Assembly: GCA_014860395.1 (NCBI GenBank)
Contig: JACZJU010000048.1
Coordinates: forward strand, 1,649 to 65,648
Direction: 5' to 3'
Source: Burkholderiales bacterium
GTDB lineage: Bacteria; Pseudomonadota; Gammaproteobacteria; Burkholderiales; SG8-39
DNA length: 64,000 bases
Part shown: positions 16,798-51,378 of the stretch, one piece after another
Layout of the letters: the number at the start of each line of letters is the position of its first letter
Position numbering within the stretch: position 1 is the first letter of the stretch
The notes under the pieces: model-generated
Databases searched by the model: none
What the model was told of the DNA's origin: nothing
What the model saw: the letters and a program-made list of their open reading frames with translations, nothing else
Made by a program: the position numbers and the translations under genes

Positions 16798-17595
16798 TCA
16801 CAATACAGAAGTAAGACTTGCCGCCGCGCGCTTCACGCGTTGGTTGCCGTTCACTGCCTTGGCAACGCGCTTTTCCACAATGGCGAAATAGTCGGGGTTG
16901 AGTTCGAAACCGATGAAATTGCGTCCGTGGCGGATCGCCGCCGCCGCCGAAGTGCCGCTGCCCATGAACGGGTCGAGCACGACGCCGCGCGCCGGGCAGC
17001 TCGCCAGCACCATGCGCTCAATGATTTCCAGCGGCTTTTGCGTCGGATGGTCCTCACGCTCGGCATGTTGGCGATGCAGACGCGACACGCTCCACACGTC
17101 CTTGGGGTTATAGCCTTCTTCCAGCCATTTCTTGCCGACGAATATGGAGCGCGAGCGCGCCTTCTTGGTTTCGGCGTCATAAGGAATGCGCACGGCATCG
17201 ACATCGAAGTGGTAGTCGCGCGACTTGACGAAAAAGCCGATGTTGTCGTGCACCGAGGAAAATTTGCGCGTGCTGCCGCCCATGCTCGGGACCCTGCGGT
17301 CCCAGATGATTTCGTTCACCATGGCAAGCCGGGTCTTGAGATAGCTGAAGACTTCCGGGCTGTGCTGCCAGGTGAGAAACACGTACAGGCTGCCGTTCGC
17401 CTTCAACTTGGGCACAACGGCGTCGATCCAGCGCCGGCTCCAGGCGAGATACTCATCCGCGGCCAGACGATCGGAATCGTTGCCGTAGTCCTTGCCCAGG
17501 CCATAGGGCGGATCGGCAATAACCAGATCCACGGAGGCGTCGGCAACTTGGCCAATCCCGGCCACGGCATCCTCGTTGTAGAGCAGCGCGCTCAT
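16798..17595 (-). CDS. Orphan beta-class N6/N4 DNA methyltransferase
   Basis: [18 protein letters not shown] in beta order; start MSALLYNED; no nuclease partner nearby. Confidence 0.92.
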
Positions 17596-17606
17596 TCCGA
17601 TCCCGG

Positions 17607-18792
<1,186 letters not shown>

Positions 18793-35826: not shown

Positions 35827-37923
35827 CTAGAACTTGTACCTCACCGACAGCCTGACTACGTTTACGTGATACTGCGGCGCCTGCAGGCCCAGCGTCAATA
35901 CGTTCGGGATGGTGGCGGGGGCGACGCCGTCTAGCATCCAGTCCTTGCTGTCGTAGCGTTCATACCAATAGCCGGCCTGCAGCGACATGTTTTCCTTCAT
36001 GCGATACGTGGCGTAGAGCTTCAGGCTGTCGAGATTGGCGGAGATGCCCGGGAACGCCGGATTCGACGCACCCGTGTAGACACTGATTTCGCTGCGCGAG
36101 CGCGTAATGCCGTAATCGGCGCCGATGTCGAGCTTGTCCGGGATCGCTGCGTGCTTCACACCCAGGCCGTAGGTGTCAATCGTATCTTTGCTGTCGGCAG
36201 ACCAATCCGGGACCGAGTAGGTCTGGCTGCCGGCCTGTTTGGACTTGATCTCCTGGCGGTTCGCGAAAACGTGCATGCTGGTCCGCTCCGTCAGAACCAT
36301 AGACACATCGCCATTCAGGTTCAGATCCTTGCCGCTGGTCAGGCCGATGGTCGAATCCTTGTATTTGTCCTCGGACGAATCGAATCCCAGCCCGAGATTG
36401 ACGTTTTCCGCAAGGGCAATGTCGGCACGCAGTCCAACGGTTTCGCGCGTGCGGTTCGCCATATTGAATCTTCTCAGCAGCGGGTTCTCCGCAGGGGTGA
36501 TCTCCGGGTTCCACTGGATGGAACCCTGGTTCCTGCGCTCGCCATGCGCGAACTTGAACGTCAGGTCGATCTTGTCCGTAATGCGCGAACTGAGCTTGCC
36601 CCAGGCCGTATCCTCGCGGGTCTTCTCGATCTCCTGATAAGTGCGCTCATGCGCATCGAAATCCGCGCCGATCGAGCCCCGCAGCCGCGCCGAGGCCCGG
36701 TAATCGGCGCTTAGCTTCAATTTGTCCTGCTTGAAGCTGTAGGGCTGGTTGGTTCTGGGCAAGCCGACGAACATATCGGTCGCCACCGAAGGGTAGGCCG
36801 CCTGCGGTGTCTGATTGTCGCGATCGTTATGCAAGTATGCCGCGTTGAGGCGCAGCCGGTCGGTCACCGCGGAGCTCAGTTTCAGGTTCGCGTCCAGCGT
36901 GTTTGCGCGGGCGTTGAGCGACGCCCCCGGCAGGCCCGCGACAACCAGCGTGGCATTCTGCGTGGACGCGAGGAAGCTGTCGTTCTGCGTCATGCGGCCG
37001 AAAGCGATGTCGGCGCTGCCGCGCGTCTTGTCGCTGAACTGGTATCCCGCCGAGGCCGAGACCTGGTGAAACTGGTTGTCCGGCGGCAACGCGAGTTGGC
37101 CCAGCGTCTCGCCGTTGATCGCCGTATACGGATCCTGCCAGGTCAGCGCGTGATTGTCGTTGCGGAATTTCGATCCGTAATACGCGAGTTTCAGCTGAAA
37201 CTTCTTGCCGGCGTACGAGGCCGATGCGTCCACCTGGTCGGTAACGTAATCCACCGGCTCGACTAACTGTGCCGTGTTGACGAAGAACGCGCCGCCGGTG
37301 CGCAGTATGTTGCCCTCTTTGGTATCGTGGCGAAAGTTCACCGCGTATTCCCACTCCTTGCTGCGGTTCCAGGAAGCGCCCACGCCAAGCTGATTCCTTT
37401 GCGTGTACAGATCGACCTGCTGCAGCGTTCCAGCCACGGGCATTGCGTCCGTCGTCGCCGCGGGGAAGCCGGCCGGCAGGCTCAGCGACGCGCCGCCGCT
37501 CCCGCCGAAAGGCGTCAGCGCTCCGTCCCAGATACGATGCGGCGTCTCGTCGTACTTGAGGCGCAGCTTGTAGGTCCCCTGCTTTCCGCCTTCGACATTC
37601 AGGCCGCGCGAGTCCAGCCCGAGATCGGACGCATCGAGATTCCAGTAGGTCCCGTCTTCGCCGCGCGAGCGCACCGCGGCGTCGCCGATAGCGAAACCGC
37701 CTTTTTCGTAGAGCCCGTTGTATTGACCGAATTCGGCTGAGTTGTCCGAGACCGAACCGGCACCCACTTCCAGCGTGCCGCTGACCCCGGTCTCGAATTT
37801 GCAGGACTCGCATTTCCACTTCGAGGTATCGACGGCTGCGGGTCCGGCGCCGTCCGCCGCCGTCGCGGTCGCAGACAATGCCGACAGCATGCCGAGCAGA
37901 AGCAGTTGATTCGAAGTCTTCAT
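35827..37923 (-). CDS. mtrB: MtrB/PioB family decaheme-associated outer-membrane beta-barrel
   Basis: Signal peptide, N-terminal WKCESC (CxxC), LPPDNQFHQ, terminal Phe; adjacent to mtrA. Confidence 0.92.
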   Translation of the reverse strand: MKTSNQLLLLGMLSALSATATAADGAGPAAVDTSKWKCESCKFETGVSGTLEVGAGSVSDNSAEFGQYNGLYEKGGFAIGDAAVRSRGEDGTYWNLDASDLGLDSRGLNVEGGKQGTYKLRLKYDETPHRIWDGALTPFGGSGGASLSLPAGFPAATTDAMPVAGTLQQVDLYTQRNQLGVGASWNRSKEWEYAVNFRHDTKEGNILRTGGAFFVNTAQLVEPVDYVTDQVDASASYAGKKFQLKLAYYGSKFRNDNHALTWQDPYTAINGETLGQLALPPDNQFHQVSASAGYQFSDKTRGSADIAFGRMTQNDSFLASTQNATLVVAGLPGASLNARANTLDANLKLSSAVTDRLRLNAAYLHNDRDNQTPQAAYPSVATDMFVGLPRTNQPYSFKQDKLKLSADYRASARLRGSIGADFDAHERTYQEIEKTREDTAWGKLSSRITDKIDLTFKFAHGERRNQGSIQWNPEITPAENPLLRRFNMANRTRETVGLRADIALAENVNLGLGFDSSEDKYKDSTIGLTSGKDLNLNGDVSMVLTERTSMHVFANRQEIKSKQAGSQTYSVPDWSADSKDTIDTYGLGVKHAAIPDKLDIGADYGITRSRSEISVYTGASNPAFPGISANLDSLKLYATYRMKENMSLQAGYWYERYDSKDWMLDGVAPATIPNVLTLGLQAPQYHVNVVRLSVRYKF

Positions 37924-38009
37924 GTTTTGGTCCTGTATTGGTTCCGGCGCAATGTGCTACATGCATCGGCCGGCACTGAAACTTCCTTTTCGATCTTTCT
38001 CATCCCCGG

Positions 38010-38987
38010 CTAGCGCATCAGCTTGGCGCCAGACGGGTGGTTCGAGCCGTGAATCTGCGAATGGCAGTTCAGGCAACTACCCGCAAGCAGGAAGGCCTCC
38101 CCGCCGGCGCCGCCGCCCGGCAATCCGTCCGGAGTGCGCGCCACCGAAGGATGGCCCGCCACCGAATGGCATTGCTGGCACAAGAGCGGCGGCATCTTCT
38201 TCAACCTTGCCGGATTGACCGACCCGTGCGGGTGGTGGCACAAGGTGCAGTCCTCGGCCACCGGCGCATGCTCCCACAGGAACGGTCCGCGCTTTTCTGC
38301 GTGGCAGGTGTAGCAGGTCTGATTCACCGTCGGCTTGATCAGCATGCCGCTGCTGGTCGACCCATGCGGGCTGTGGCAGTCGCTGCACGCCATCTTGCCG
38401 AAGCGCACCGGGTGCGTGGACGGCTTGGAGAAGTCCGCGCGCTCCTTCCTGTGGCACTTGTAGCAAACCTCCGGCTGCGTGGCCGTCGCCAGAACCGGGT
38501 CGCGTTCGGCATGGATTTTGTGGCAATCGCTGCACGCCACATTGTTGGCATCGTGCGTGCTCGCATGCCAGCCGATGCGCGCATTGTTCTCGTGACACGC
38601 CAGGCAGAACTTGTTGCGCTGCTGCGGGGTCAGGAACGAGCTGGACTTGAAGCTGTTGATGCCGTCCGGGCCGCCGCCGTTGTCGGCGTGCTTTTTTCCG
38701 GGACCGTGGCAGGCCTCGCATTGCAGGTTTCCCGGCGCAAAGGGCGCGCGCTTGTCCGCGCGGTTGGCGTGCTTGGTCTTGAAAATCGCGAACACTGGAT
38801 AGCCGCCGCCTTCGACGTGGCACATCAGGCAGGTGTCCGCGCCTGTTTCGGTGTATTCCGTTCCCAGGCTGGGCGGGGGCGGCGGCGGCTCGGCAGCCTT
38901 GGCAGGTTCCGCGTCGGCTGCGGCAGCGCTGAACGAAACGCCCGACAACAGAAGCAGCGCGGCGAATAATGTTTTCTTGATAGTCAT
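38010..38987 (-). CDS. mtrA: Periplasmic decaheme cytochrome c, MtrA/DmsE family
   Basis: 10 CxxCH motifs; GPFLWEHAPV and C-terminal HGSNHPSG. Confidence 0.94.
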   Translation of the reverse strand: MTIKKTLFAALLLLSGVSFSAAAADAEPAKAAEPPPPPPSLGTEYTETGADTCLMCHVEGGGYPVFAIFKTKHANRADKRAPFAPGNLQCEACHGPGKKHADNGGGPDGINSFKSSSFLTPQQRNKFCLACHENNARIGWHASTHDANNVACSDCHKIHAERDPVLATATQPEVCYKCHRKERADFSKPSTHPVRFGKMACSDCHSPHGSTSSGMLIKPTVNQTCYTCHAEKRGPFLWEHAPVAEDCTLCHHPHGSVNPARLKKMPPLLCQQCHSVAGHPSVARTPDGLPGGGAGGEAFLLAGSCLNCHSQIHGSNHPSGAKLMR

Positions 38988-39052
38988 CGTTGTCTGTCCG
39001 TTAGCCATGGTTCTTGTTGATCCCTGATACCCGCGCGCATCAGCCCTGGCGC

Positions 39053-41419
39053 TTACTTCACGCCGTGCACCGTCTTGACATCCAGCACCTTGCCGGCCCC
39101 GTGGCAGAAAGCGCAAGCCTCCGGCACGGCTGCCGCGATTGCCGCCTGCGTCACAGAGAATTTCCCGGCGGGAAAGGTATCCTGCATATGCAGCTTCACC
39201 GATGCGCTGTCGTGGCAGGACGAGCACACCGCCGCGGTCGGCGAGATTCTGAGGTTGTCCGCGGGATCGGTCGCCGAGGCGCCGGTTCCGATCGTGGTCC
39301 CGAGAATGCCGTTGGCTGTCGGCGCGCTCCAAGTCCCCGTCAGCTGGTAGGAGGTGCCGGCATGGCAGGCCGAGCAGTCATTCAATTTTCCGGGGAAAAC
39401 CACGGCGCTGAAATCGTTCACGCTGCCGCCGAAGCCATACACCGTGATCCCGGTCGTGCGGAATCCGCCCTTGTCCGCCTGTCCCGCATGGATGGCATGG
39501 ATCATCGTCTTGAAGTCGATCGATTCTTCCAGCTTGCCGTCGGCGCCGCCGGTGAGCGCGCCGGGAGCACCCGGACGCCGGCTCGCATCGGTCGCGTCCG
39601 GATTGTGGCAAACCACGCAGACACCGGGTTCGTCGGTGCGGTTGTTGCCGTGCAAGCTCAGCACGTCATGGCAGACGTTGCACTTGGCCACGTCGACCAC
39701 CGTCCGTCTCGCAACGACGGTGCCGGTAATCGCGGCATCCTTGAACGCGCTCTTGACCTTCAGCCGGTCGGTAAACGTCCCCGCGGTGGTGACGTCTCCG
39801 GCGGGATGCCCATCGATCGTGACCCGCAGCGTGCCCGTTTGGGCGGTAGGGATGGCGACCGTCGAAGTGACGGTGTAAGTGCCGTCCCCGACCGCCACCG
39901 AATTCGCCAGGGCGTCGATGCTGACCGGCTGGCCGAAGCTTGCGCCGCTGCCCTCATTGCCTAAATCGAGCTTCCCGTTTTCGTTCCAGCCGATGCTGAC
40001 GGCCAGCCTGCTGCTGCCGTCCGCCGTTTGCGTGAAGTGCGGGTCGGTCTTGATGTCGTAGGGTGCATCCGCGTTGGTCGGGTCGGTGACGGAGAAGGTA
40101 ACGACCGGCTTCGCCCCCGCCGTCGTGGGCGTGACGCTGAGGACGCTGTACTTGAACTTGGCGGAGGCCGCTTTGAACCTTTCCGGGAAGTTGTGCGCGA
40201 GGGCAATATCCTTATTGTCAGGAAACTTCCCTGCCGCATGGCACACCACGCAGGCGCTGCTGTCGGTCATGACGCCGCCCGAATGCGGCTTCGTCTGATA
40301 CGGCTTGGCCGGATCGGAGCTTGCGCCGAAATACACGTCGTCGTGGCAGGCGCCGCAGGCATCCATGTTCGGCTGGGTCTTCCAGTTGTCGCCCTGGGCG
40401 GTGGCGTTCGACGCGCCCGGCGTGCCGTCGTGGCACTTGCTGCAGTTGCGCACATCCTGCGGGAAGGCAGCATTGGAAAAATCGGTGCCGTTGACCACGT
40501 AGGGCGTGCCCGCAAGCACGCTGGGCAACGCGGCGCCGTCATGAATCTTGTGGATCATCACCTTGAAATCCACAGTCGTGTTGGGCGTCCCGGCGACCCA
40601 GGACCCCGGGTTGTGGCAGGTGACGCATAACTTGGTGTCGACGCGCGTGCCATGCGCCTCGAGTTCGTTGTGGCAGGCGTTGCACTTGGCCGTGGCGACG
40701 ATATCGCGTTTGCTTGCGACCGCGCCGCCCCCCGGCACAAAATCATACACGCCGGCTGCCTTGGGATACGCGTTGTTGCCCTGCTGAATCGTGACGCGAT
40801 GGGTCAAGCCGGGCTGATAGCTGATATCGAGCGCTTTGCCGTTTGCGTCGGTACACGGCGCCGGGCAGGAATTCGCGGCGGGATTCGTGATGTCGGTGGC
40901 AAACGTATAGGTGTAGCTGCCGTCGCCGTGATTCGACAGCGAGCCGAAAGCGTAGCCGGTAGCCGAGCGCTCCTGGCTACCCTGCACCGCCCCGCTCCTG
41001 GCCCGGTTGATATAGTTCTGCCAGGCGCTGGGAGCGCCGTTCGACCCCGGCGAGAGCTTGGCGATGTTGAAGCGCAGGTCCGCGGCAACAAGGCCCGACA
41101 TGCCGGCGCCGGCCTGGTTGGTGACGGTGAAGTTCACCACCGGCGGGCTGTTGATGGTCACCGACGTGATGTTCACGTTCAGCGCGCTGGAGGCGGCCAG
41201 TGCTGCCGCACCAGCGGCAAGTCCGTCCGTCGCTCCGCCCGTTCCCGCGCCAGCCGAACCGCCACTGGATCCGCCACCGCAACCGGCCAATGCCAACACC
41301 AGCATGCCGGCCGCCAAACCCTGAATGAAGTTCCCGGTTCTCCGGATGGACCAGACCTTCGGCCTCCCACCTTGAAGTGCAAGGCCGGTCCAGCGAAACG
41401 ACAATCGATGCTCGGTCAT
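39053..41419 (-). CDS. mtrC: OmcA/MtrC family decaheme lipoprotein (paralog 1)
   Basis: Lipobox LAGC; 10 CxxCH in a 5+5 layout; MIHKIH and MIHAIH; directly upstream of mtrA. Confidence 0.88.
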   Translation of the reverse strand: MTEHRLSFRWTGLALQGGRPKVWSIRRTGNFIQGLAAGMLVLALAGCGGGSSGGSAGAGTGGATDGLAAGAAALAASSALNVNITSVTINSPPVVNFTVTNQAGAGMSGLVAADLRFNIAKLSPGSNGAPSAWQNYINRARSGAVQGSQERSATGYAFGSLSNHGDGSYTYTFATDITNPAANSCPAPCTDANGKALDISYQPGLTHRVTIQQGNNAYPKAAGVYDFVPGGGAVASKRDIVATAKCNACHNELEAHGTRVDTKLCVTCHNPGSWVAGTPNTTVDFKVMIHKIHDGAALPSVLAGTPYVVNGTDFSNAAFPQDVRNCSKCHDGTPGASNATAQGDNWKTQPNMDACGACHDDVYFGASSDPAKPYQTKPHSGGVMTDSSACVVCHAAGKFPDNKDIALAHNFPERFKAASAKFKYSVLSVTPTTAGAKPVVTFSVTDPTNADAPYDIKTDPHFTQTADGSSRLAVSIGWNENGKLDLGNEGSGASFGQPVSIDALANSVAVGDGTYTVTSTVAIPTAQTGTLRVTIDGHPAGDVTTAGTFTDRLKVKSAFKDAAITGTVVARRTVVDVAKCNVCHDVLSLHGNNRTDEPGVCVVCHNPDATDASRRPGAPGALTGGADGKLEESIDFKTMIHAIHAGQADKGGFRTTGITVYGFGGSVNDFSAVVFPGKLNDCSACHAGTSYQLTGTWSAPTANGILGTTIGTGASATDPADNLRISPTAAVCSSCHDSASVKLHMQDTFPAGKFSVTQAAIAAAVPEACAFCHGAGKVLDVKTVHGVK

Positions 41420-41583
41420 GATTACCCTTTGTTGGAGGACACATCGCTCCTCCGCTCGAACAACCCCGAAAAAGCACGGAGCGTTACGAAATTCACAGCG
41501 GCTACGCGACGTTGAAACCCGTTCCGAATCCTAATTCAGATCGGTTCATGTTGCAAATGCAAACCACCGTGTTTCCAGCCTTG

Positions 41584-41997
41584 TCATCGACTGGCGCCCG
41601 CCTTTTTCAGCTTCTCCAGTTTGGCCGCGCTGGCCGCATTCTGCTTCGCGATCACGCGTGATTTGAGCGCGTCGTAGCTCCCCGGCGACACGATGTTTTC
41701 AGTCAGCAGATCGGCCTTGCTGAGGTAAGGCCGGCCGGCGATGATCTTGTCGGCGTCCGCGTCCTTGATGCCCGGCAGCTTCTTCAGTTCTGCCTTGCCG
41801 GCGCTGTTGATATCGACGGGCTTGGCCCGTGCTTTGGCTTTGTTTGCCTTGGCGGCTTTGTCGTTGGACGCTTTGCCTTTGCTGATTGCTTTCGTTTCTG
41901 CGCCCGGTCCGGTCGTACTATCGGCTGCAAAGGAGGGGCTGGCGCACAGCAGCAGTGCTGCGGCTATGAATGCGGATGAGATGATGCTGCGTTGCAT
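41584..41997 (-). CDS. Exported helix-hairpin-helix (ComEA-like) protein
   Basis: Signal peptide; VDINSA..EL..LPGI..ADKIIAGRPY motif. Confidence 0.85.
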   Translation of the reverse strand: MQRSIISSAFIAAALLLCASPSFAADSTTGPGAETKAISKGKASNDKAAKANKAKARAKPVDINSAGKAELKKLPGIKDADADKIIAGRPYLSKADLLTENIVSPGSYDALKSRVIAKQNAASAAKLEKLKKAGASR

Positions 41998-42079
41998 AAA
42001 GAATCTCCGGGAATTGATTAGATGACAATCCTGTAGCAAACATGACCGGCGTGCCCGATATTCCGGACGCGCATAACAT

Positions 42080-42115
42080 GAAAAAAAGACCCGGAAGCGT
42101 TGCCGCCTCCGGGTC
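42080..42115 (-). terminator. Intrinsic terminator after MtrC paralog 2
   Basis: GACCCGGAGGCG-GCAA-CGCTTCCGGGTC-TTTTTTT on the minus strand. Confidence 0.75.
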
Positions 42116-42188
42116 ATCTTTTGCTTCAGTTGCCGGTGCTCGGAAAACCGTGCCCCGGCTTGCTTACCGTGACCAAACCTCGGTCACG

Positions 42189-44621
42189 CTATTTCGCGTG
42201 CTGGACCTTGATATCCACCAGCTTGCCGGAACCATGGCAGAACAGGCAGTTCTCAGTCTTCAACATCGCCGTCGAGCGAGCCTCGTAAATCGAACCGCCG
42301 CCGTCCTGGCTCATGTGCGTCTGCGCGGTGCTGCTGTCGTGGCAGGAGAAGCATGCCGCCGCGATCGGCGAGTTCACCAGGTTCGTGGCCGCAGCCGGCG
42401 TGGTAGGCGTCCAGCTGGCCCCATAGGCGGTACCCGCTGTCTGCGCGATGTACGGCGATGTGTCGAAGGTCGCAGTCACAGTCGTGCCCTCGGCCACAGT
42501 CCTGTACAAGCGATTGGGCACCGCAGCCGCATTGTCGGTCCCGCTGAAGTCATACGAGCCAGCCACGTGACAGGTTTCGCAGTTCTTCAAGATCCCCGGG
42601 TATGCAACCATGGAGTAGTTGTAAGCCGCAGACGACGCAGTCCAAGTGAACGGCACGGTGCGCTTGCTCGCGCCGTGGATGCCGTGAATGAACGCGCTCG
42701 AATCCCAGGACCAACCGCTGTTCGTGCCGGCATTGGGGTTGTGGCAGAACGCACAAATTGTTGCGTCGTTCCTGGCACCGCCGTGGAAGTTCGGGTCGAC
42801 CCCAAGCTGATCGTGGCACTTGCTGCACTTGGCGGTTTCCACGATAGCGCGACGGCCCGTATAGCCGGTCGCCACCTTGGTGACTATCGGCGTCGAAAGG
42901 CCCAGGCCAGCCGGATACGCAGCCAGGTTCATCTGCGTGAAAGAGTAACCCACGAACGCCGTGACCATCGACGCGTTGTCAGGAATCGTTGTCGTATGGG
43001 TCACAGAGTAATAGCCGTCAGCGTCAGGGCCAGTCAATCCGCCCGTTCTCCAAGGACCAGTGGTCGAATTCAAAGTCACACCGCTGGCGCTACCACCGGC
43101 GTTGTTGAAGTCGGCGGGAGCGGTGATGCCGTCCTGCGGCTGTGAATAGGCCAGGTAGATGCGCGGGCCGTCATTGAAGTCGGTGATCATCTGGGTCGCG
43201 CCCGTCGTGAACGGGTTAAGCGTCACCACAGCCCCGTCTTTCAGGATTCTGAACACGACAGTGGCTTTCTTCGCTCCGGAAGCACCGGCCACCGTGACAT
43301 CTTTGATTTCATAGCTGAACTTGGCTGCGCCCGCGGGCAGGTTGCTCTGTGACGTTTCGCCGCTTGCGACCGCGACGTGAACGGTTGGGATATTCGTCGC
43401 GGTGTGGCAGATATGGCAGGCGCTGTCATCCGTCTGAATGCCGCCTACGTGGCCGTAGGTCGACTCCGTGATGCCACCGGCTTCCGCATCGGCGATGGTC
43501 AGGCCTTTGCCGGTAGCAAAATTAATGCCGGCATGGCAGGAGCCGCAAGCGGCGCGGCTGGGAACGCTCTTCCAGTTGTCGGCCTGCGCTGCCTTGGTGT
43601 TGTCGTGGCACTTGGTGCAATTGGCAAGCGACTGCGGGAAACCGACTTCGGCGTAGTCGTTCTCGCCATCTCGGTAGCCCCAGATGGTGTAGTCCGTGCC
43701 GAACCATGATTTCAGGTGTTCTCCGGCATGGATCTTGTGCACCATGATGCGGAAGTCGAGGACGTTGCCGCTGTTCGCGTCGGTGGTGCCGGCGTTGTGG
43801 CACAGCACGCAGTACTGCGTATCGATGCGCCCGCCGCCGTGCAGCGCCAGTTTCTCGTGGCACTCGTTGCAGGACGTGATGTCGACCACCTTGTGGTCCA
43901 GGCTGGTGTCGGTGACCGCCACGGCTTTGCCGTCGGTGCCGATGGTGAAGTCGAAATAGGGATTGGCCAACACCGTGGCGCCAGCGGCGTTCGTATAGCT
44001 CAGCTGGATCGCGACGCGATGCGTTTTCGTCGGGTCATACCCCGTGGCCGCGGTGATGTCGGTGCTGAATGTGTACGTGTAGTAACCGGCGTCGTTATAG
44101 ACCAGAGAGCCCTCGGCCTCCGTGTCGGTCGTGGCCTGCGTGGCGGTTGCCAGAGCGGGCGTGCCGCCGGGGCCTACGCCAGCCGTGGCCGTTTCGGTGC
44201 GTGTGGTGTAGCTCACCCATTGGTCGGGAGTTCCGCTGGTCCCCTTGTCAAGCCTGGCGATGATGAAAGCCACGTTGCTCAAGGTCAGGTCTTTCTTTAC
44301 CGCGCCGTCGGAAATCACGGTGAAATTGACTTTGGGCGGGCTGTTGACGGTCACCGGCGCAATGCCGGCGTCCTGTACGACGGCGAATGCAGCGGTCGGT
44401 GTGGTTCCAGTGTCATTGGCGGCAACTGCAGCGGCCGCTGTGATTGCCGCAGCGGCAGTGGCGGGAGTACCGCCGCCAGTGGCAGGCGGCGGCGTCGTGG
44501 TGGTATCACTGCTGCTACTTCCGCCGCATCCGGCCAAGCCGAGCGCGAGCAAGCCCGCCGCGGCAAAATTGACCCAGCGATACGAAGTGCGGGTCTTACT
44601 TAACAGATTTGAGTACTTCAC
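42189..44621 (-). CDS. OmcA/MtrC family decaheme lipoprotein (paralog 2)
   Basis: Lipobox LAGC; 10 CxxCH (5+5); MVHKIH and FIHGIH; GTG start inferred. Confidence 0.88.
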   Translation of the reverse strand: MKYSNLLSKTRTSYRWVNFAAAGLLALGLAGCGGSSSSDTTTTPPPATGGGTPATAAAAITAAAAVAANDTGTTPTAAFAVVQDAGIAPVTVNSPPKVNFTVISDGAVKKDLTLSNVAFIIARLDKGTSGTPDQWVSYTTRTETATAGVGPGGTPALATATQATTDTEAEGSLVYNDAGYYTYTFSTDITAATGYDPTKTHRVAIQLSYTNAAGATVLANPYFDFTIGTDGKAVAVTDTSLDHKVVDITSCNECHEKLALHGGGRIDTQYCVLCHNAGTTDANSGNVLDFRIMVHKIHAGEHLKSWFGTDYTIWGYRDGENDYAEVGFPQSLANCTKCHDNTKAAQADNWKSVPSRAACGSCHAGINFATGKGLTIADAEAGGITESTYGHVGGIQTDDSACHICHTATNIPTVHVAVASGETSQSNLPAGAAKFSYEIKDVTVAGASGAKKATVVFRILKDGAVVTLNPFTTGATQMITDFNDGPRIYLAYSQPQDGITAPADFNNAGGSASGVTLNSTTGPWRTGGLTGPDADGYYSVTHTTTIPDNASMVTAFVGYSFTQMNLAAYPAGLGLSTPIVTKVATGYTGRRAIVETAKCSKCHDQLGVDPNFHGGARNDATICAFCHNPNAGTNSGWSWDSSAFIHGIHGASKRTVPFTWTASSAAYNYSMVAYPGILKNCETCHVAGSYDFSGTDNAAAVPNRLYRTVAEGTTVTATFDTSPYIAQTAGTAYGASWTPTTPAAATNLVNSPIAAACFSCHDSSTAQTHMSQDGGGSIYEARSTAMLKTENCLFCHGSGKLVDIKVQHAK

Positions 44622-44756
44622 TCTGGCCCCCTTTTCTTGCGAGTTAGCGTTATACGGCGATCGATCCAGATTCAGCGTGAATACGGGCCCCAACACTAAT
44701 GGCCTGCGCACTCATCCCGAAGTGTACGGAAATTACTCCCTTAAATAAAGGTCTAT

Positions 44757-44770
44757 TTGATCTAGATCAA
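44757..44770. promoter_or_regulatory. FNR/Anr box upstream of MtrC paralog 2
   Basis: Perfect TTGAT-CTAG-ATCAA; minus-strand TAATTT at 44735-44730 gives class II spacing. Confidence 0.85.
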
Positions 44771-44908
44771 AAGGAACCATTGAACCTTATTTCCGCCTCG
44801 CGATCCCCCGATCTTAGGATTACTCCTACGCATTGCGCGATCGAAGTTGCTGATGGCGCCCCTGCTGGAAACCGGCGCCGGACTGGCCACGGCATGCCGA
44901 GCCTGCAC

Positions 44909-44943
44909 GAAAAAAACCCGGAAGCGTCGCCGCTACCGGGTTG
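44909..44943 (-). terminator. Intrinsic terminator downstream of MtrC-like paralog 3
   Basis: AACCCGGTAGCG-GCGA-CGCTTCCGGGTTTTTTT on the minus strand. Confidence 0.7.
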
Positions 44944-45162
44944 TTAGGAGAAGCAGGGCGCCGCCAATGGCAACCTCCTTCAGGTTCGCCGATCATCTCT
45001 CCCTGGGCGACAGCCGCTTCCCGCCAAATACTCGTCTACACCAAATCTCTTACACCCCAAAAGAATAAGGCGAGCCGATCGGCTCGCCTTATCCCCAAGG
45101 AATCATGGGACCAAACTTCTGAAACAAGCGAGGCGGGCCTAGGGCCCGCCTCGCTCCTTTCC

Positions 45163-47631
45163 CTACTTGAAGACTGCCATCACCTTCGCAACCGTGGCAT
45201 CCCAAAGAGTATCTACGTTCTCCAGGAGATAACCATTCTGCTTCCAATGCTGGAACAGTGTTACCAGCCCACCCGCATCGTCAGCAATGATCTTGCTGCT
45301 ACGGTGGCACGCTCCGCACGCTGTTGCAGCAGGGCCGGTGACATACGAAGGTACGGTACCGATGTTCCTGGTCTTGCCCGTCAGCGAATCAGACGCCGAC
45401 AACAGACCCGGCAAGGACTTGGACTGGTCCGATACTCCATACATACCCGACACATGGCAGGATTCGCAGTCTGTCGTTCCCGCACCACCCGCGCCAAACC
45501 TCGGGAATTCGGTGCCGGTGTGATGCGTGTATTCCATCGCTTCGAACGTGTCGGCGAAATTGATGTCACCGATGTCGAAGTACTGGAACGTGTGGATCGC
45601 ATGCACATAGGAGTCGATCGAGCGCGACTGCATTTCCAGATGCGAGCCGCCAGAGGACTTCACGTGGCAGAGCCTGCAGACCTTGATGTTACCGCCCCTG
45701 TCTCCGGAATGGAAAGTGGTCGCAAGCTGGTCGTGGCAGGTGTTGCAGCCCTTGGTCGCCGCATAACCAGACGAGGTCGTTACGGCAGTCCCCGCCACGT
45801 TCACGATATCGCTGAAGTAGGTAACAAAAGCGTTCGTGGTCAGATCAAAGGTCTTGGAAGGCGCGTCGAGCCCAACGGTGTCGCCGTTGGCATCCTTCAG
45901 CGCAGGCATAACAGCGATCTCCGCGCGCTTGATCGTTTTGTCGGTAATCATGTCCGCCCACGCCGACAGGTCCGCCGTCACTTCCCAGCTGCCGCCCGCG
46001 GCCGAAACCGTCGTGAAACGCGGATTGGTAGCTCCAACGACATATTCCAGCAGCCTGTTGCCGTCGGCATCCCGACCGTGCGCCTGCACGATGAAGTCCT
46101 TCGTGTTGTAGCCATACAGGCCGACCATGACGGTAGGCGTGATGCTGCTTGCCGTAAGGCTTCCCACCGTACCGGTCGCGCTGAACTTGACGTCGAGCAC
46201 GTTGGTGGTGGCATCGAACGTTGCGCTGTCGATGGTTACCGGGAAGCTGGTGGAATACCTGACGCCAGCACTGGTATAGATCTTCGGATCATAGCCGCCG
46301 GTGTGTATCGTCTTGAACGAGGGAGCAGTCGCACCGTCATGACACAGGGTGCAATTCGCCGCAGTCAAAGTTGCCGCGTCCGTGACATAGCTGCTGTGGT
46401 TGTATGCAGCCGCTTTCATCTTGTCTGTTATGCCATTGAACGCGTGGCAGCTAATGCAGGTTTCTCCTCTGAAATTAGCAGACTTGAATATCCCCGTGGT
46501 TTCGTCCATCTTGCCTGCATGACAGGCTACGCAGTTTCTCATCGACTGCGGATAGGCGAATTCCATGGCGTGCGACATATGCACGTCGTTCATCAGCCTG
46601 GCTTTATAGCCATATTTGGTGTCTTCCGCGGCCGTAGTGGCGCCGCCATCGTTTACCGCGACAGCGCGATCGCGCAGAGCCTGGCCCGCGGCGGTCGTCG
46701 GATCGGCGTCTTTTGCTTCCTTCAAGAGCTGCCAGAATTCATGGCCGCCGGTACGGGCGTCAGAGTGACAGCCTTTGCAGACATAGAACTGCTGCGTGGT
46801 GTTCGCGGCAGCGCCCGGCGTCAGGTCGTTGACCGTGCCGTAGATGTAGGCATGCTTGAGGTAAGGTTGGGTGTGGCAGCTTTCGCAGCCCGAGACATTC
46901 GCGGCGGAGGTGTAAGGCGCCGTCGCAGCACCCATTTGCGGGCCTAGTCTGAGGACGGCCGCAAACGGGTACTTGCCTTTGTTCATGTGTTTCGCGGAGA
47001 TCGTTTCGACTATCTCGTCCACGCCATACAGCTGGATGATGCCATTCGCGGTAGCGATGCTGGCGTTTGCGGCTATGTCTGCCGCGGCGGTAAACGTCTT
47101 TTTCATCGTGCAGACGCCGGCCCCGACATAGGTCTTGGTACCTGCCAAACTCAGATAGCTGGGTTCCACTGCCGCTTGAAACCTGCTTGCAGTAGCGTCA
47201 TAAGCTGCCCAGTAGCTCCCGAGCGAGTCGGCTGCGGTGCAATCGAATGCTGCGCCACTCTTGGTCATGGTGAATGTCAGCGTGCTCGTGTCATTTGCCG
47301 TCGTGGTCGTGCTTACGGCGTACGACAAAGCCGTGACTTTGATGACGCCGTTTTGATAGAGCTCATTATAGCTTTCCTGGTGTCCCGGGCCTGAACGGGC
47401 GGTCGCCGCGGCCAAGGTGCCGGTATGGCACAGCGCGCAAGTCTCACCACCCGTTGCGGCGGCCAGCGCTACAGCTTCTGCCGTAGGCGGCGTCACAATA
47501 GCGGTAGACGCGGCTGGAACAGCAGGCGTGCCACTGTCGCTGCTACTGCTGCTTCCGCCGCAAGCGCCCAGCGTGCCGAGCATCAGCGCGGCAGCGCCCC
47601 ATCTAAACAATGTGGGTATCGTCATTTTCAT
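45163..47631 (-). CDS. Divergent MtrC/OmcA-like multiheme lipoprotein (paralog 3; 10 CxxCH, 1+5+4 layout)
   Basis: Lipobox LGAC; CALCH near the N-terminus, then 5 and 4 CxxCH; VHMSH and YVHAIH. Confidence 0.82.
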   Translation of the reverse strand: MKMTIPTLFRWGAAALMLGTLGACGGSSSSSDSGTPAVPAASTAIVTPPTAEAVALAAATGGETCALCHTGTLAAATARSGPGHQESYNELYQNGVIKVTALSYAVSTTTTANDTSTLTFTMTKSGAAFDCTAADSLGSYWAAYDATASRFQAAVEPSYLSLAGTKTYVGAGVCTMKKTFTAAADIAANASIATANGIIQLYGVDEIVETISAKHMNKGKYPFAAVLRLGPQMGAATAPYTSAANVSGCESCHTQPYLKHAYIYGTVNDLTPGAAANTTQQFYVCKGCHSDARTGGHEFWQLLKEAKDADPTTAAGQALRDRAVAVNDGGATTAAEDTKYGYKARLMNDVHMSHAMEFAYPQSMRNCVACHAGKMDETTGIFKSANFRGETCISCHAFNGITDKMKAAAYNHSSYVTDAATLTAANCTLCHDGATAPSFKTIHTGGYDPKIYTSAGVRYSTSFPVTIDSATFDATTNVLDVKFSATGTVGSLTASSITPTVMVGLYGYNTKDFIVQAHGRDADGNRLLEYVVGATNPRFTTVSAAGGSWEVTADLSAWADMITDKTIKRAEIAVMPALKDANGDTVGLDAPSKTFDLTTNAFVTYFSDIVNVAGTAVTTSSGYAATKGCNTCHDQLATTFHSGDRGGNIKVCRLCHVKSSGGSHLEMQSRSIDSYVHAIHTFQYFDIGDINFADTFEAMEYTHHTGTEFPRFGAGGAGTTDCESCHVSGMYGVSDQSKSLPGLLSASDSLTGKTRNIGTVPSYVTGPAATACGACHRSSKIIADDAGGLVTLFQHWKQNGYLLENVDTLWDATVAKVMAVFK

Positions 47632-47829
47632 ATATTGCTCCCCAGTTTTGAAAACCACCAACACGACTTCGAAATAAACCATGCGACCGGCAATGTTCCT
47701 CGTTATTTCCCTTTTTGCCTTGCCATTCAGTCGGTCTTGACGTCACGCCCGCGCCTGCCTATCTGCGCCTGAATACCGCTGGACGGACAACTTCCTTTCC
47801 GAAGGGTACCTATCGCAGCCAATAGCTTT

Positions 47830-47843
47830 TTGATCTATATCAA
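47830..47843. promoter_or_regulatory. FNR/Anr box upstream of paralog 3
   Basis: Perfect TTGAT-CTAT-ATCAA; minus-strand TACCCT at 47808-47803 at the same spacing as the 44757 box. Confidence 0.85.
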
Positions 47844-48060
47844 AGCCCCATTGATTCGCGTGGAACCATAGTCTTGCCAAATGGTCGCATATGCAATGTA
47901 TGTTGTCCATGCCTGCGCGCGCGCCGGCACCGGCCATAGTGCATCGAAGGCGTTGCACATGGACCGGCCCAGTCTGCCGTTGAGCTGGTCCCCGGTCCGG
48001 AAATAGCGGGATCTGAATCCTCAAGCTGCTGCCCACCACCGAGAAATGGAGCCCGCCGGT

Positions 48061-48357
48061 TCAGGACTCCTTCGATTCGAGCGCGATCTGCCGGCGCAAT
48101 TCGCGATAGCGCGCGTCGGGAGCCTCGCCGAACAGCGGATCGGCGCCGGGCGGGACCGCCGCCATGATCTCTTCCCAGTCCTGCGGCGTGAGCAGTTGTT
48201 CGGCGCGCGGCACGATATCGCGGTCTTCCAGCGCAAGGTGGCGGCGGTAGTACACGAGGTAGGTCGCGGCCGCGGCTTCCACTTTGGCGCGCTCCACCAC
48301 GACATCGTCGACCACCAGTTGGAGGTACTTGAGCAGTTTTAGCGTGAACACCCGCAT
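48061..48357 (-). pseudogene. Duplicated 3' half of the hemerythrin-domain gene (possibly translated from its own ATG)
   Basis: 48061-48338 is a diverged direct repeat of 49139-49416; in-frame ATG at 48357 preceded by AGGAGG. Confidence 0.75.
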
Positions 48358-48441
48358 GATATCCTCCTGCCCTGGGGAAAGACCGCTTACCGGAAAATCC
48401 CAAATAGCGCATGCGCAGCATAAATTGCCCAGGAAACAGCC

Positions 48442-48750
48442 ATGACAAACCTTATCGACCAGCATCGCGATGAAGTCGCCGCCCTGTGTCGACGCGCCGG
48501 CGCACGGCGGCTGGACGCCTTCGGCTCTGCTATCCGCGCCGACTTCAATCCGCAGGCTAGCGATCTGGATTTCCTGGTCGAATTCGACGACGTGCCGCCC
48601 GCCGTCTACGCAAAGGCCTATTTCGCGCTGAAGGAGGGGTTGGAATCGCTGTTCGGCCGACCCGTGGACCTTGTGACCGGGAGCAGCCTAGCCAACCCCT
48701 ATTTCCGGGAACGGATCCTTGCAGAACGTCAGAACGTCTATGCACGCTGA
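48442..48750 (+). CDS. MNT nucleotidyltransferase antitoxin (MntA-like)
   Basis: FGS..DF...SDLDFLV and LFGRPVDLV motifs; overlaps the HEPN gene. Confidence 0.9.
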   Translation: MTNLIDQHRDEVAALCRRAGARRLDAFGSAIRADFNPQASDLDFLVEFDDVPPAVYAKAYFALKEGLESLFGRPVDLVTGSSLANPYFRERILAERQNVYAR

Positions 48751-49081
48751 CGCACGCAAACTGCTTTGGGATGCGCGGCACGCCGCCGAGCGCATCGAAC
48801 GCTTCACCGCGGGCAAGACCTTCGCAGAACATGATGCGGACGAGTATTTGCGATCCGCGGTCGAACGCCAGTTTGAGATCGTCGGCGAGTCAATGAACCA
48901 ACTGCGACGCATCGATCCCGACTCCGCAACCGCGGTTCCCGAACTTACTCGTGTCATTGCGTTCCGCAATATCCTGGTTCACGGCTACGCCAATGTGGAC
49001 AACCGTCTGGTGTGGGGCGTAGTCGAAACCGATCTTCCGTCCCTGCGCGCCACGCTGGACCGTCTGCTAGAGAAACAGTAA
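48740..49081 (+). CDS. HEPN/DUF86 RNase toxin (HepT-like)
   Basis: AVERQFEIVGE and RNILVHGY (Rx4HxY) motifs. Confidence 0.9.
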   Translation: MHADARKLLWDARHAAERIERFTAGKTFAEHDADEYLRSAVERQFEIVGESMNQLRRIDPDSATAVPELTRVIAFRNILVHGYANVDNRLVWGVVETDLPSLRATLDRLLEKQ

Positions 49082-49138
49082 CCGGGCACGAGGGGTTCGC
49101 CACCTCGCCCACTCTACGTTGGTCCAGCGCGCACCGTA

Positions 49139-49693
49139 TCAGACTTCCTTCGATTCGAGCGCGATCTGCCGGCGCAATTCGCGATAGCGCTCGTCGGAGT
49201 CCTCGCCGAACAGCGGATCGGCACCGTGCGGGACCGCCGCCATGACCTCCTCCCAATCCTGGGGCGTCAGCAGCTGTTCCGCGCGCGGCACGATATCCCG
49301 GTCTTCCAACGCAAGGTGACGGCGGTAATACACCAGGTAGGTCGCAGCCGCGGCCTCCACTTTGGCGCGCTCGACCACGACATCGTCGACAACCTGTTGG
49401 AGGTATTTGAGCAGTTCGGTGCCGGCAGCGGCGATCACCCGATGCTCCTGCAGCAACTGCTCGATCATGGGTTTCACCTGCGGGTCGCGTTGGGCCATGC
49501 GGGCAAATGCCACGTCCTCGCGCGCGTGGTGATAACGATCCGGGAAATAGCGCAGATAACTGACAAGATCCAGCATCAGCTCGAAGTTTGGCTGGTCGTC
49601 GGCATGGAACGCGGCTACCTGCCGCTCCAGCAGATCGAGCAGCCGGGCAAAATGCCTGTGCTCGGTGTGCCACAGGGCGATCGAATCAGACAT
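49139..49693 (-). CDS. Hemerythrin/HHE-domain protein
   Basis: EHRH, YHHARED, QEHR and HLALED metal-ligand motifs. Confidence 0.88.
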   Translation of the reverse strand: MSDSIALWHTEHRHFARLLDLLERQVAAFHADDQPNFELMLDLVSYLRYFPDRYHHAREDVAFARMAQRDPQVKPMIEQLLQEHRVIAAAGTELLKYLQQVVDDVVVERAKVEAAAATYLVYYRRHLALEDRDIVPRAEQLLTPQDWEEVMAAVPHGADPLFGEDSDERYRELRRQIALESKEV

Positions 49694-49733
49694 GCAGCCT
49701 CCCAGGGGATATCAGTGCGAGCATGCGGTTTGA

Positions 49734-50174
49734 CTAGCGAACGCCGGAACCCGCCCCACCGCTGCCGCTGCTGCTGCCACCACCACCACCACTGCTTCGA
49801 CCGCCACCGCGACCGCCGCTGCGGCCGATATTCCTGCGGCCGCGGTTGCGCGGGGGATTGTGCGATTTTTCCGGCCGCGGCAACTGCTGCCCCCGCGGCC
49901 GTGCACTCCTGGTCATCGCACCTTGGCCTTTGCCGCCGGCCATGGATTGCACCCGCTTGATACCGTTCGCCACAGCTTCGACATTGATGGCGTGGATCGT
50001 GTCAGGTCCATGCAGCTGCAGGGCTTCTTTTTCCTGCGCCAGCAAAGCCTGCAATTTGCCCAGCGCCTCGCTGCATGCCACTGCGAGACCCGACTCCTGT
50101 TCGGTACCCTGTCGATGCATCTCGATAGCGGCGATGGCGTCGGTCACCTCGTCGCTTGCCATTCGTGTGCTCAT
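49734..50174 (-). CDS. Hypothetical protein with Arg/Gly-rich disordered C-tail
   Basis: ORF with GGAG upstream; helical N-half and an RGRR/GGRGGG tail. Confidence 0.55.
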   Translation of the reverse strand: MSTRMASDEVTDAIAAIEMHRQGTEQESGLAVACSEALGKLQALLAQEKEALQLHGPDTIHAINVEAVANGIKRVQSMAGGKGQGAMTRSARPRGQQLPRPEKSHNPPRNRGRRNIGRSGGRGGGRSSGGGGGSSSGSGGAGSGVR

Positions 50175-50426
50175 GCCAATAGCTCTCCGTATTTTCCCTT
50201 GGGATCGCGCTCAAACGCTGCGGTGGCACCAGGTGCCTGTATGCGGCGCGCGGCTTGCGCCGCGCCCTGTGCGGCGCCGTGCCGCTTCAGGACTCCGCTC
50301 TAGGCGCACACTTCGGCGCGCCTACGCCAGCTTCGTGGGGCGGGTCTGGGGCAGTGCCGCTCAGCGGCGGCGTAGTCCCCAGCCACGGATCATACTATAA
50401 ACTCCCCGCGGCTCGCGCCGCTGCAT

Positions 50427-50440
50427 TTGATCAAGGTCAA
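50427..50440. promoter_or_regulatory. FNR-like box upstream of the hypothetical/hemerythrin genes
   Basis: TTGAT-CAAG-GTCAA (one mismatch). Confidence 0.65.
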
Positions 50441-50493
50441 GCTTGGTGCGAACAGCGCGCTCCTGCAATCCGGTCCCGGCAACGGATCCGGTC

Positions 50494-51207
50494 CTAAACC
50501 GAAATAACCAGCTTCTGGTAAAGGCCGCCGTAGTAGGTCTCCTTGCGTATCTGCGCCGGTTTGATGCTTTCAGGCAACCATTGCGCGATTTCATGCTGCC
50601 AGAGATCGAGGGCGTAGGGCTCGAGCACGCGCAGAACCGGGCGAAACAGATAGCGCAAGGGGTGCAGACGGCGCGGCAGGTGATAATCCACCAGCACCAG
50701 CTTGCCGCCGGGCTTGACCACGCGCAAGGCTTCGCCCAGGGTCTGCCTGCGCGCCGCAGCCGGCTGCTCGTGCAGCAGAAAGAAGAGAATCGCCTGGTCA
50801 TAGCTCGCGTCCTCGAAACCAAGCGCGGTCGAATCGTGCTGATGCAGCGTCACCGGCGCCGCGGCCGGGAGCTTTTCGCGCAGATTGCGCAACTGGATCG
50901 GCAGCACGTCGACGACGTCGAGCGAGCCGCCCGGCGCGACGCGCGCGGCAAGGTGCTCGGAGAAATTACCGTAGACGCAGGCGACCTGCAGCGTGCGCCC
51001 CGGAACTTCGCGCCCGAGTTCGGCGAGCGCGGCGTCGCGCAGGCGCGCGAAGTTGCCCCATAGAATCAGATTGACCAGCCACTGCCGCTCGAAGAAGCTG
51101 ACGGCGTTCGGATGGACATAGGCCCACCAGTAAGTATCCTGCAGATAGCTCGGGATGGCCTGCGGCCGCGACAGTTCCAAAGTCTCTTGCTCGCCTTTGT
51201 GGCTCAT
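50494..51207 (-). CDS. rquA: Rhodoquinone biosynthesis protein RquA
   Basis: IPSYLQDTYWWAYVHP, FERQWLVNLILWGN, LQVACVYG, FFLLHEQP and GGLYQK, characteristic of RquA. Confidence 0.9.
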   Translation of the reverse strand: MSHKGEQETLELSRPQAIPSYLQDTYWWAYVHPNAVSFFERQWLVNLILWGNFARLRDAALAELGREVPGRTLQVACVYGNFSEHLAARVAPGGSLDVVDVLPIQLRNLREKLPAAAPVTLHQHDSTALGFEDASYDQAILFFLLHEQPAAARRQTLGEALRVVKPGGKLVLVDYHLPRRLHPLRYLFRPVLRVLEPYALDLWQHEIAQWLPESIKPAQIRKETYYGGLYQKLVISV

Positions 51208-51364
51208 GCGTCTGTTCTCGCTGTTGCTGTTGCCACCCGCGGGCGGAGGATAAAGACCGTTGCGTCTGACCGTGCGCGCTGCGACTGGCGCAAACACCGC
51301 GGCGGCTTGGCTCTGCCCGCAGACCGCAATATGCCATATTCGGCAGCGGCGCGGTGGCAAAGGC

Positions 51365-51378
51365 TTGATATTGCTCAA
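51365..51378. promoter_or_regulatory. FNR-like box upstream of rquA
   Basis: TTGAT-ATTG-CTCAA (one mismatch). Confidence 0.6.

Follow-up and report, generated by a model that had tools for sequence, protein, structure and literature searches.

Mtr-type conduits are the best-studied route by which bacteria reduce iron and manganese minerals and produce electrical current, and the accepted model of how they work needs menaquinol. The prototype is the CymA-MtrCAB system of Shewanella oneidensis, which is used anaerobically and comprises the porin MtrB, the decahaem cytochrome MtrA and decahaem lipoproteins of the MtrC/OmcA type, encoded in the order mtrC-mtrA-mtrB. Ubiquinone has a potential of about +100 mV, rhodoquinone and menaquinone of about −60 to −80 mV, and the haems of the Mtr proteins lie mostly below 0 mV; RquA, when expressed in Escherichia coli, gives rise to rhodoquinone. 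To our knowledge, Betaproteobacteria have classically been held to make ubiquinone only. Here we analyse a 64-kb stretch of DNA (the window) from an uncultured Burkholderiales bacterium (GCA_014860395.1, here G000; Burkholderiales in the broad sense of the genome collection), in which rquA, the gene of the rhodoquinone biosynthesis enzyme, stands at the head of a set of Mtr genes. The window shares MtrB, MtrA, MtrC-type lipoproteins, their gene order and a predicted anaerobic use with S. oneidensis. It differs in carrying three MtrC paralogues and a helix-hairpin-helix (HhH) gene; moreover, G000 gave no matches above cut-off to CymA/NapC-type proteins or to the menaquinone pathways (men/mqn), CbcL/MtrH-type proteins are its candidate quinol oxidases, and its predicted low-potential quinone is rhodoquinone. 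Throughout, L, G and C numbers denote loci, genomes and contigs of G000.

Other counterparts are the betaproteobacterial mtrCAB clusters of Groups 3 and 4, for example that of Rhodoferax (Albidoferax) ferrireducens T118, which have an HhH gene between two mtrC genes, occur in genomes with MtrH (of the CbcL family) and fumarate reductase, and look mobile (PMC8805035, PMC6295460). R. ferrireducens carries two cymA genes and mtrH together with mtrABC (PMC6295460), and frdABCD is a frequent neighbour of betaproteobacterial mtrCAB clusters (PMC8805035). In the window, by contrast, rquA heads the Mtr genes together with orf146 and a hemerythrin gene; cymA is lacking, and frdABCD and the mtrH-like gene are carried by different contigs. 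The described frdABCD-rquA modules (PMC5953543) resemble the locus in their RquA family, their anaerobic context and, often, a position behind an FNR-type box; in the window and its clade, however, rquA is not beside frdABCD. A last point of comparison is provided by Geobacter CbcL and the PdsA of Vibrio and Aeromonas. Contig C222 encodes a protein of CbcL-like build, with nine c-haem motifs and a putative b-type membrane domain, the neighbours of which match the PdsA model, but all the C222 matches score below curated cut-offs and the genes lie outside the window; they are candidates only.

An earlier note on this stretch, made from the letters alone, had placed mtrB, mtrA, three MtrC-like genes, a hemerythrin gene and rquA on the minus strand within ~15.5 kb, and profile matches confirmed this arrangement. 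Read along the minus strand, the island consists of rquA, orf146, hemerythrin, mtrC3, mtrC2, the HhH gene, mtrC1, mtrA and mtrB, as follows.

50494..51207, minus strand: rquA, rhodoquinone biosynthesis enzyme, 237 amino acids from the ATG at 51207; NF038261, 308.3 bits.
49734..50174, minus strand: orf146, 146 amino acids with a Gly/Arg/Ser-rich tail; no family.
49139..49693, minus strand: hemerythrin-like protein, 184 amino acids; PF01814, 57.6 bits; after orf146 in relatives too.
45163..47631, minus strand: mtrC3, divergent decahaem lipoprotein of the MtrC/OmcA type; PF22113, 84 bits; 10 CXXCH motifs; lipobox.
42189..44711, minus strand: mtrC2, decahaem lipoprotein of the MtrC/OmcA family; TIGR03507, 503 bits; 10 CXXCH motifs; lipobox.
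41584..41997, minus strand: HhH gene, start at MQRSII; PF12836, 35 bits; signal peptide.
39053..41419, minus strand: mtrC1, core decahaem MtrC lipoprotein; TIGR03507, 518 bits; 10 CXXCH motifs; lipobox.
38010..39008, minus strand: mtrA, periplasmic decahaem cytochrome, 332 amino acids; TIGR03508, 304.9 bits; 10 CXXCH motifs; signal peptide.
35827..37923, minus strand: mtrB, outer-membrane porin; PF11854, 590 bits; TIGR03509, 530.5 bits.

The RquA match spans positions 1-216 of the 218 in the RquA equivalog model NF038261, far above its cut-off of 175 bits. In profile searches the protein shows class I methyltransferase domains, and it is 83-93% identical to its 12 closest relatives. On the Mtr side, the window contains an MtrB/PioB barrel (the only one in G000), a decahaem cytochrome of the DmsE/MtrA type and an OmcA/MtrC decahaem lipoprotein in the order C-A-B that defines MtrCAB. 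All three MtrC-type proteins carry a lipobox of the form L-x-G/A-C, and mtrC3 scores 134.7 bits with TIGR03507, under the cut-off of 209.3 bits. The HhH gene is the conserved 'HhH CDS' of betaproteobacterial mtr clusters.

When the window was scanned for TTGAT-N4-ATCAA with at most one mismatch, five matches were obtained against 0.83 expected, a number that was reached in none of 100 shuffles. Four of the five are the FNR-type boxes that the earlier note had reported.

51365..51378, unstranded: FNR-type box TTGATATTGCTCAA, one mismatch, 158 nt upstream of the rquA ATG.
50427..50440, unstranded: FNR-type box between rquA and orf146, one mismatch.
47830..47843, unstranded: FNR-type box upstream of mtrC3, perfect.
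44757..44770, unstranded: FNR-type box upstream of mtrC2, perfect.

The box between rquA and orf146 is kept at the same place in 12/12 close relatives, and an equivalent of the box upstream of rquA occurs in nine of these 12. Boxes also precede the MtrC genes in all six relatives' loci that reach them (L003, L005, L006, L007, L008 and L012). Furthermore, G000 encodes two regulators of the Crp/FNR family, each with a cluster of Cys residues near the N terminus and a recognition helix of the E--SR form. Boxes, conservation and regulators together predict that the island genes are members of an FNR/ANR regulon.

We then asked which quinones and quinol dehydrogenases G000 encodes. Profile searches of the genome returned zero matches to MenA and to MqnA/D, and the best MenD match reached 73 bits against a cut-off of 244. 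One MenB-like protein, with 324.6 bits against a cut-off of 342.7, was taken as a crotonase relative and not as evidence of menaquinone synthesis. UbiA, the single step of the ubiquinone pathway that was scored, is present (TIGR01474, 336 bits against 275). Rhodoquinone is the only low-potential quinone that G000 is predicted to make.

The earlier note had also stated that the cluster holds neither a CymA/NapC-type protein nor any other inner-membrane quinol dehydrogenase. As regards CymA this is correct for the cluster and for the genome as a whole, where the best PF03264 match scored 22.2 bits against 24.1 and tblastn with three CymA-type proteins from relatives gave no match. The wider statement applies to the cluster only; a scan of all G000 frames for haem motifs revealed CbcL/MtrH-type candidates on C222 and C279, and the dehydrogenase is probably encoded outside the cluster. 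The C222 candidate is a protein of 679 amino acids with nine CXXCH motifs followed by at least three hydrophobic segments, and it has a weak FdnI-like match (25 bits). It is 54% identical over 662 amino acids to a multihaem protein that is encoded between cymA and frdA in L033, directly upstream of frdABCD-rquA in Rhodoferax-type loci. By the gene order given in PMC6295460, the L033 protein would be the MtrH of the CbcL/MtrH/MtoC family. Two cytochromes resembling PdsA, a periplasmic dihaem shuttle, flank the C222 protein (136 and 107 bits, both below the cut-off). Candidates for a split version of the nine-haem/b-type protein are a nine-haem cytochrome and a cytochrome b561 encoded on C279, which share 41% and 59% identity, respectively, with two proteins encoded between mtr and frdABCD-rquA in L059. 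At the start of the same contig (C279:55-156), the first 24-34 codons of an open frame match eight other contigs at 88-100% identity, and this is a dispersed repeat that probably broke the assembly just upstream of the nine-haem/b561 pair. An E. coli-type frdABCD is found on C234, off the window's contig.

The linkage of rquA to mtr genes, for which the earlier note had proposed a survey, recurs both in close relatives and in other lineages. We compared 80 loci around RquA homologues with flanks of 10 kb. The 12 loci closest to the window all keep rquA next to orf146, and the hemerythrin gene follows in 11 of them, wherever the contig reaches; none of the 12 has frd within the flank. Copies of orf146 are 70-83% identical in L001-L012, where they stay between rquA and the hemerythrin gene; this protein gave zero matches in Pfam or NCBIfam and no usable match in the ESM Atlas. 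Among the six close relatives with at least 3 kb of sequence downstream, five run on into MtrC genes, the exception being L010, which has other genes. The order rquA-orf146-hemerythrin-MtrC was found in L003, L005, L006, L008 and L012, which were assembled independently, and also in L110; in L003 the series extends through MtrA and MtrB.

Over the whole set, genes of the MtrA/B/C type occur within 10 kb of rquA in 17/80 loci, an MtrH-like protein in 18, the split pair in two and a CymA-type protein in nine, and 34/80 loci contain at least one gene of an extracellular-electron-transfer type (Mtr/Mto, MtrH-like, split pair or CymA-type). In a Steroidobacteraceae metagenome-assembled genome (MAG), L028, the genes mtrC-mtrA-mtrB-pdsA-like-cymA-rquA follow one another on a single strand. 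The Rhodoferax-type loci L033 and L065 read MtrC-HhH-cytochrome c-cymA-cymA-mtrH-frdABCD-rquA, and G102 has, on one strand, cytochrome c-mtoA-mtoB-frdABCD-rquA with a divergent FNR-type regulator and two FNR-type boxes in the gap. In an RquA tree, frd-linked sequences surround the clade of the window (13 rows, support 96), which suggests that rquA left frdABCD and joined Mtr genes in this clade. In G416, a genome of the same clade, FrdC is encoded ~75 kb from rquA on the same contig.

Some further observations concern rquA itself. In L074 (8158-9726) and L080, both from MAGs of the Polaromonas/Rhodoferax type, rquA is divergent from cytochrome c and CymA-type genes and has the cytochrome-maturation genes ccmABC downstream; in L074 the neighbours of rquA include a PccH-like cytochrome gene (PF22297), which was not detected in L080. 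A possible second RquA of G000 (C82:6346-7137, L109) was rejected as a UbiE-family paralogue, with 119 bits, below the NF038261 cut-off, and an unrelated context among acyl-CoA dehydrogenase and transporter genes. Second matches to the RquA model of 110-121 bits recur across many related genomes.

To look at the linkage from the Mtr side, we used 401 genomes drawn evenly from the order and a set of 72 MtrC-anchored loci, one per genome, picked by similarity to the window's MtrC. MenA served as the menaquinone marker; MenD was dropped because, at E ≤ 1e-30, it had matches in 0/11 genomes, even though two of these have a MenA-MenE-MenB cluster. Within 10 kb of the MtrC anchor, rquA was present in nine of the 72 loci, and it lay just beyond this distance on the same contig in three more. 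In whole-genome searches, 29 of the 72 genomes matched RquA, 16 matched MenA and 27 matched neither of them; not one matched both. This complete lack of overlap has a Fisher p of 8e-5, uncorrected for phylogeny. The order sample had 39 genomes with RquA over the cut-off, 56 with MtrB/PioB, seven with MtrC and 41 with MenA over the cut-off. RquA is thus more frequent among the MtrC genomes (29/72 against 39/401), and the excess persists when the eight rows of the window's clade are removed (21/64 against 38/400). An MtrB tree with 62 rows requires at least 13 changes of the RquA state and at least 11 of the MenA state, so that closely related conduits are found in hosts with either quinone. In the order sample, MenA is enriched among the genomes with MtrB/PioB (18/56 against 23/345 of the others). 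Six genomes of that sample encode both RquA and MtrB: the genes are at most 13 kb apart in G000, G102 and G191, on different contigs in two others, and megabases apart in the complete genome G312.

As side observations on the menaquinone marker, two genomes of one family in the order sample, G130 and G216, have both MenA and RquA, and G332 has a menA-menE-menB cluster, although MenD was not found in this genome at E ≤ 1e-30. MenA-like matches below the cut-off were not counted; these lie in the ruv region in G153 and G337 and beside a V-ATPase-like gene in G363.

The arrangement in the window suggests joint expression, at low oxygen, of the Mtr conduit and of rhodoquinone synthesis, and rhodoquinone is the one low-potential quinone predicted for this organism. 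We lean slightly towards the view that rhodoquinol is a common anaerobic donor: it would serve fumarate reductase, and MtrH/CbcL-type cytochromes together with PdsA-like shuttles would carry its electrons to MtrAB and the three surface cytochromes. The island would then probably be one for low-oxygen respiration, in which FNR-type regulators respond to anoxia by switching on units from separate boxed promoters: rquA, orf146-hemerythrin, mtrC3 and mtrC2, with HhH-mtrC1-mtrA-mtrB coming after. RquA would convert ubiquinone to rhodoquinone, and the CbcL/MtrH-type cytochromes of the inner membrane, that is, the nine-haem b-type fusion of C222 and the split nine-haem cytochrome and cytochrome b561 of C279, would oxidise rhodoquinol. 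The PdsA-like periplasmic cytochromes encoded beside the C222 gene would relay the electrons to MtrA within MtrB, and the final transfer, to Fe(III), Mn(IV), humic substances or electrodes, would fall to the three MtrC-type lipoproteins. Rhodoquinol from this common pool would also supply the fumarate reductase encoded on C234, so that rhodoquinone would be a shared anaerobic quinone in the role that menaquinone has in Shewanella. The links that we infer are control by FNR, the step from rhodoquinol to MtrH, the relay through PdsA-like cytochromes and a flow of electrons that is directed outward.

Tentatively, this picture may be extended to other genomes. Rhodoquinone might replace menaquinone in the Mtr-type extracellular respiration of Beta- and Gammaproteobacteria that have no menaquinone, rquA being an accessory gene of mobile mtr islands and the conduit settling as a reductase only in hosts with one of the two quinones. 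Such a replacement, which we regard as possible rather than probable, would explain why RquA and MenA do not overlap in the 72 MtrC genomes despite more than ten state changes of each on the MtrB tree. If true, rhodoquinone would gain a second major physiological function besides fumarate respiration, part of the patchy spread of mtr islands would be explained, and rquA would offer a one-gene adaptation of ubiquinone-only chassis strains for bioelectrochemistry.

We found no coupling of rhodoquinone to extracellular electron transfer in full-text literature searches, beyond the reach of which lay papers in subscription journals and bioRxiv supplements; as the earlier note had surmised, the idea appears not to have been described. 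The raw linkage of rquA and mtr is partly in print (PMC8805035, PMC5953543). Stairs et al. (2018, PMC5953543) reported rquA to be linked to genes for respiratory complexes, cytochromes and haem, and according to supplementary file 1 of that paper position -1 of rquA is occupied by MtrB_PioB in one genome, and position -2 by a NapC/NirT-type protein in two others; the supplement labels those neighbours 'Cytochrome c' only and gives no reading in terms of extracellular electron transfer. PMC8805035 assumes menaquinone, in that a transferred mtr cluster is taken to function only in recipients that already have menaquinone biosynthetic genes; its main text contains zero occurrences of methyltransferase, ubiquinone, FNR and hemerythrin. 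By full-text search, the word rhodoquinone appears in neither PMC8805035 nor PMC6295460, and ubiquinone is absent from both main texts. A further paper, PMC12911419, was dismissed as a link between rquA and extracellular electron transfer, its main text containing neither rquA nor rhodoquinone. In the searchable literature we found no treatment of how carriers without menaquinone, such as R. ferrireducens, drive a low-potential conduit. The rhodoquinone reading, the either/or pattern with MenA and the arrangement of rquA and mtr without frd are new as far as these searches reach.

The strongest alternative is that rquA and the Mtr genes are merely co-regulated neighbours. According to this explanation, rquA serves fumarate reductase, Mtr receives electrons from ubiquinol by way of MtrH-type proteins or by another route that needs no rhodoquinone, and the two meet in the window as anaerobic genes gather in FNR-controlled islands that move horizontally. 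Several observations favour it, although we consider it unlikely. The commonest neighbour of rquA is frdABCD, which adjoins it in 46/80 loci, and on the tree the RquA of the window's clade branches among frd-linked RquAs. FrdC is present in 21/29 genomes with RquA and MtrC, and in G000 frdABCD is the classical rhodoquinol sink, the role of which alone could explain both the presence of rquA and its control by FNR. Betaproteobacterial mtrCAB clusters, moreover, frequently have frdABCD as a passenger (PMC8805035).

A number of other results weigh against a role of rhodoquinone in Mtr respiration. RquA is not enriched together with MtrB/PioB in the order sample (6/56 against 33/345 in the rest) and occurs in just two of its seven MtrC genomes. 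In the family to which G000 belongs, 7/10 genomes have MtrB and 0/10 RquA, and G363, from a sister genus, has an MtrC-HhH-MtrC-MtrA-MtrB cluster with an FNR-type box and neither rquA nor hemerythrin beside it. A low-potential quinone marker is not universal in MtrC genomes, because 27/72 show none of RquA, MenA and MqnA/D; two of these 27 are cultured Colwellia-type isolates (L172 and L173). Within the window, no FNR-type box with at most one mismatch was found directly upstream of HhH-mtrC1-mtrA-mtrB, and a search allowing two mismatches was unconvincing. The MtrH-like and PdsA-like assignments are based on scores below cut-off and on similarity to genes of relatives. Lastly, the compared genomes are mostly MAGs of unknown completeness, some of them oddly labelled and maybe chimeric, and the statistics on the RquA, MenA and MtrC counts are uncorrected for kinship.

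Against mere neighbourhood, in turn, stands the fact that in the window's own clade rquA has parted from frdABCD and sits with Mtr genes. In L028, rquA comes directly after cymA in the mtr string, and the genome of this locus (G410) gave no match to FrdC; it is one of the 8/29 RquA and MtrC genomes in which FrdC is absent. The absence of any co-occurrence of RquA and MenA in the 72 genomes would be hard to explain if the type of quinone were irrelevant to Mtr. In addition, the potential of ubiquinol is too high for efficient reduction of Mtr haems. Taken together, comparative genomics, the sole kind of evidence used here, partly supports the earlier interpretation that rhodoquinol instead of menaquinol drives the conduit: the lack of men/mqn, the recurrent linkage and the lack of overlap between RquA and MenA in the 72 MtrC genomes speak for it, whereas the presence of frdABCD, the genomes with neither marker and the sister genus without rquA do not. 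What is unlikely is that rhodoquinone is reserved for Mtr alone, because G000 has frdABCD, the commonest neighbour of rquA.

A second alternative reverses the direction of flow. Here Fe(II), Mn(II), reduced humics or a cathode would be the donors, the conduit would pass their electrons through MtrH-type proteins to the quinone pool, and rhodoquinone would connect the uptake with either fumarate reduction or reverse electron transport. Pairs resembling MtoAB/PioAB are linked to rquA without MtrC in L017, L019, L054, L068, L072, G102 and G191, and the PccH-like gene of L074 points the same way. Homologues of CbcL/MtrH/MtoC and CymA are found in organisms that reduce Fe(III) as well as in those that oxidise Fe(II) (PMC6295460), and Betaproteobacteria that encode MtrCAB have been implicated in oxidative electron transfer (PMC8805035). 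Nevertheless, we judge this explanation improbable. The three surface MtrC-type lipoproteins of the window are the component associated with reduction of insoluble acceptors, and the FNR-type boxes point to expression under anoxia, a condition in which Fe(II) or a similar donor would have to be paired with a different acceptor. A need for a low-potential donor pool would also agree with the either/or pattern of RquA and MenA. At neutral pH, Fe(II) reduces rhodoquinone less favourably than ubiquinone.

That the adjacency of rquA and Mtr is due to chance or to an assembly artefact at a duplicated hemerythrin segment is very improbable: a 288-nt direct repeat (89% identical) does separate the rquA side from the Mtr side in an assembly of 336 contigs, but the same gene order recurs in the independently assembled relatives named above, and a public contig piece spans 48083-49175 with zero mismatches in two runs, with no conflicting joints reported. 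By markers, the G000 assembly is 100% complete with 4.24% contamination. Three public DNA runs gave only short contig pieces, which do not span the island and in which the joint of the toxin-antitoxin insertion described below is locally continuous.

The repeat, through which the 3' part of the hemerythrin gene is present twice, flanks a toxin-antitoxin pair that interrupts the minus-strand series (48051-49416). These and one further feature of the island are as follows.

48442..49081, plus strand: MNT (nucleotidyltransferase)/HepT toxin-antitoxin pair; PF01909 and PF01934.
48061..48357, minus strand: duplicated 3' fragment of the hemerythrin gene, 92% identity over 91 amino acids to hemerythrin residues 93-183.
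42088..42115, minus strand: terminator-like hairpin after mtrC2, with a 12-bp stem and a T run, from a consensus scan only.

In relatives the same gap after the hemerythrin gene is filled by other genes of this kind, namely one for a HipA-like kinase in L005 and one for an HTH_3 protein in L010, and insertion at this spot seems to be recurrent. In L019 (2137-2679), beside MtoAB-CymA-rquA-frdABCD of another RquA lineage, there is a hemerythrin that shares 54% identity with that of the window; the association with hemerythrin may therefore be wider than the window's clade. Terminator-like sites in general were near chance (21 against 16 expected), the hairpin after mtrC2 being a strong exception, and a sigma-70 promoter scan was uninformative, with two sites against 4.2 expected.

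Elsewhere in G000, contigs C131 (L094:214-1932) and C133 (L095:213-1817) each encode an octahaem cytochrome that belongs to the tetrathionate-reductase family (TIGR04315; 622 and 618 bits, respectively); these would be further periplasmic reductases in need of a quinol dehydrogenase. In the window itself, a DNA methylase gene (PF01555, 177 bits) at 16798-18405 sits between trpA and trpB of the tryptophan operon.

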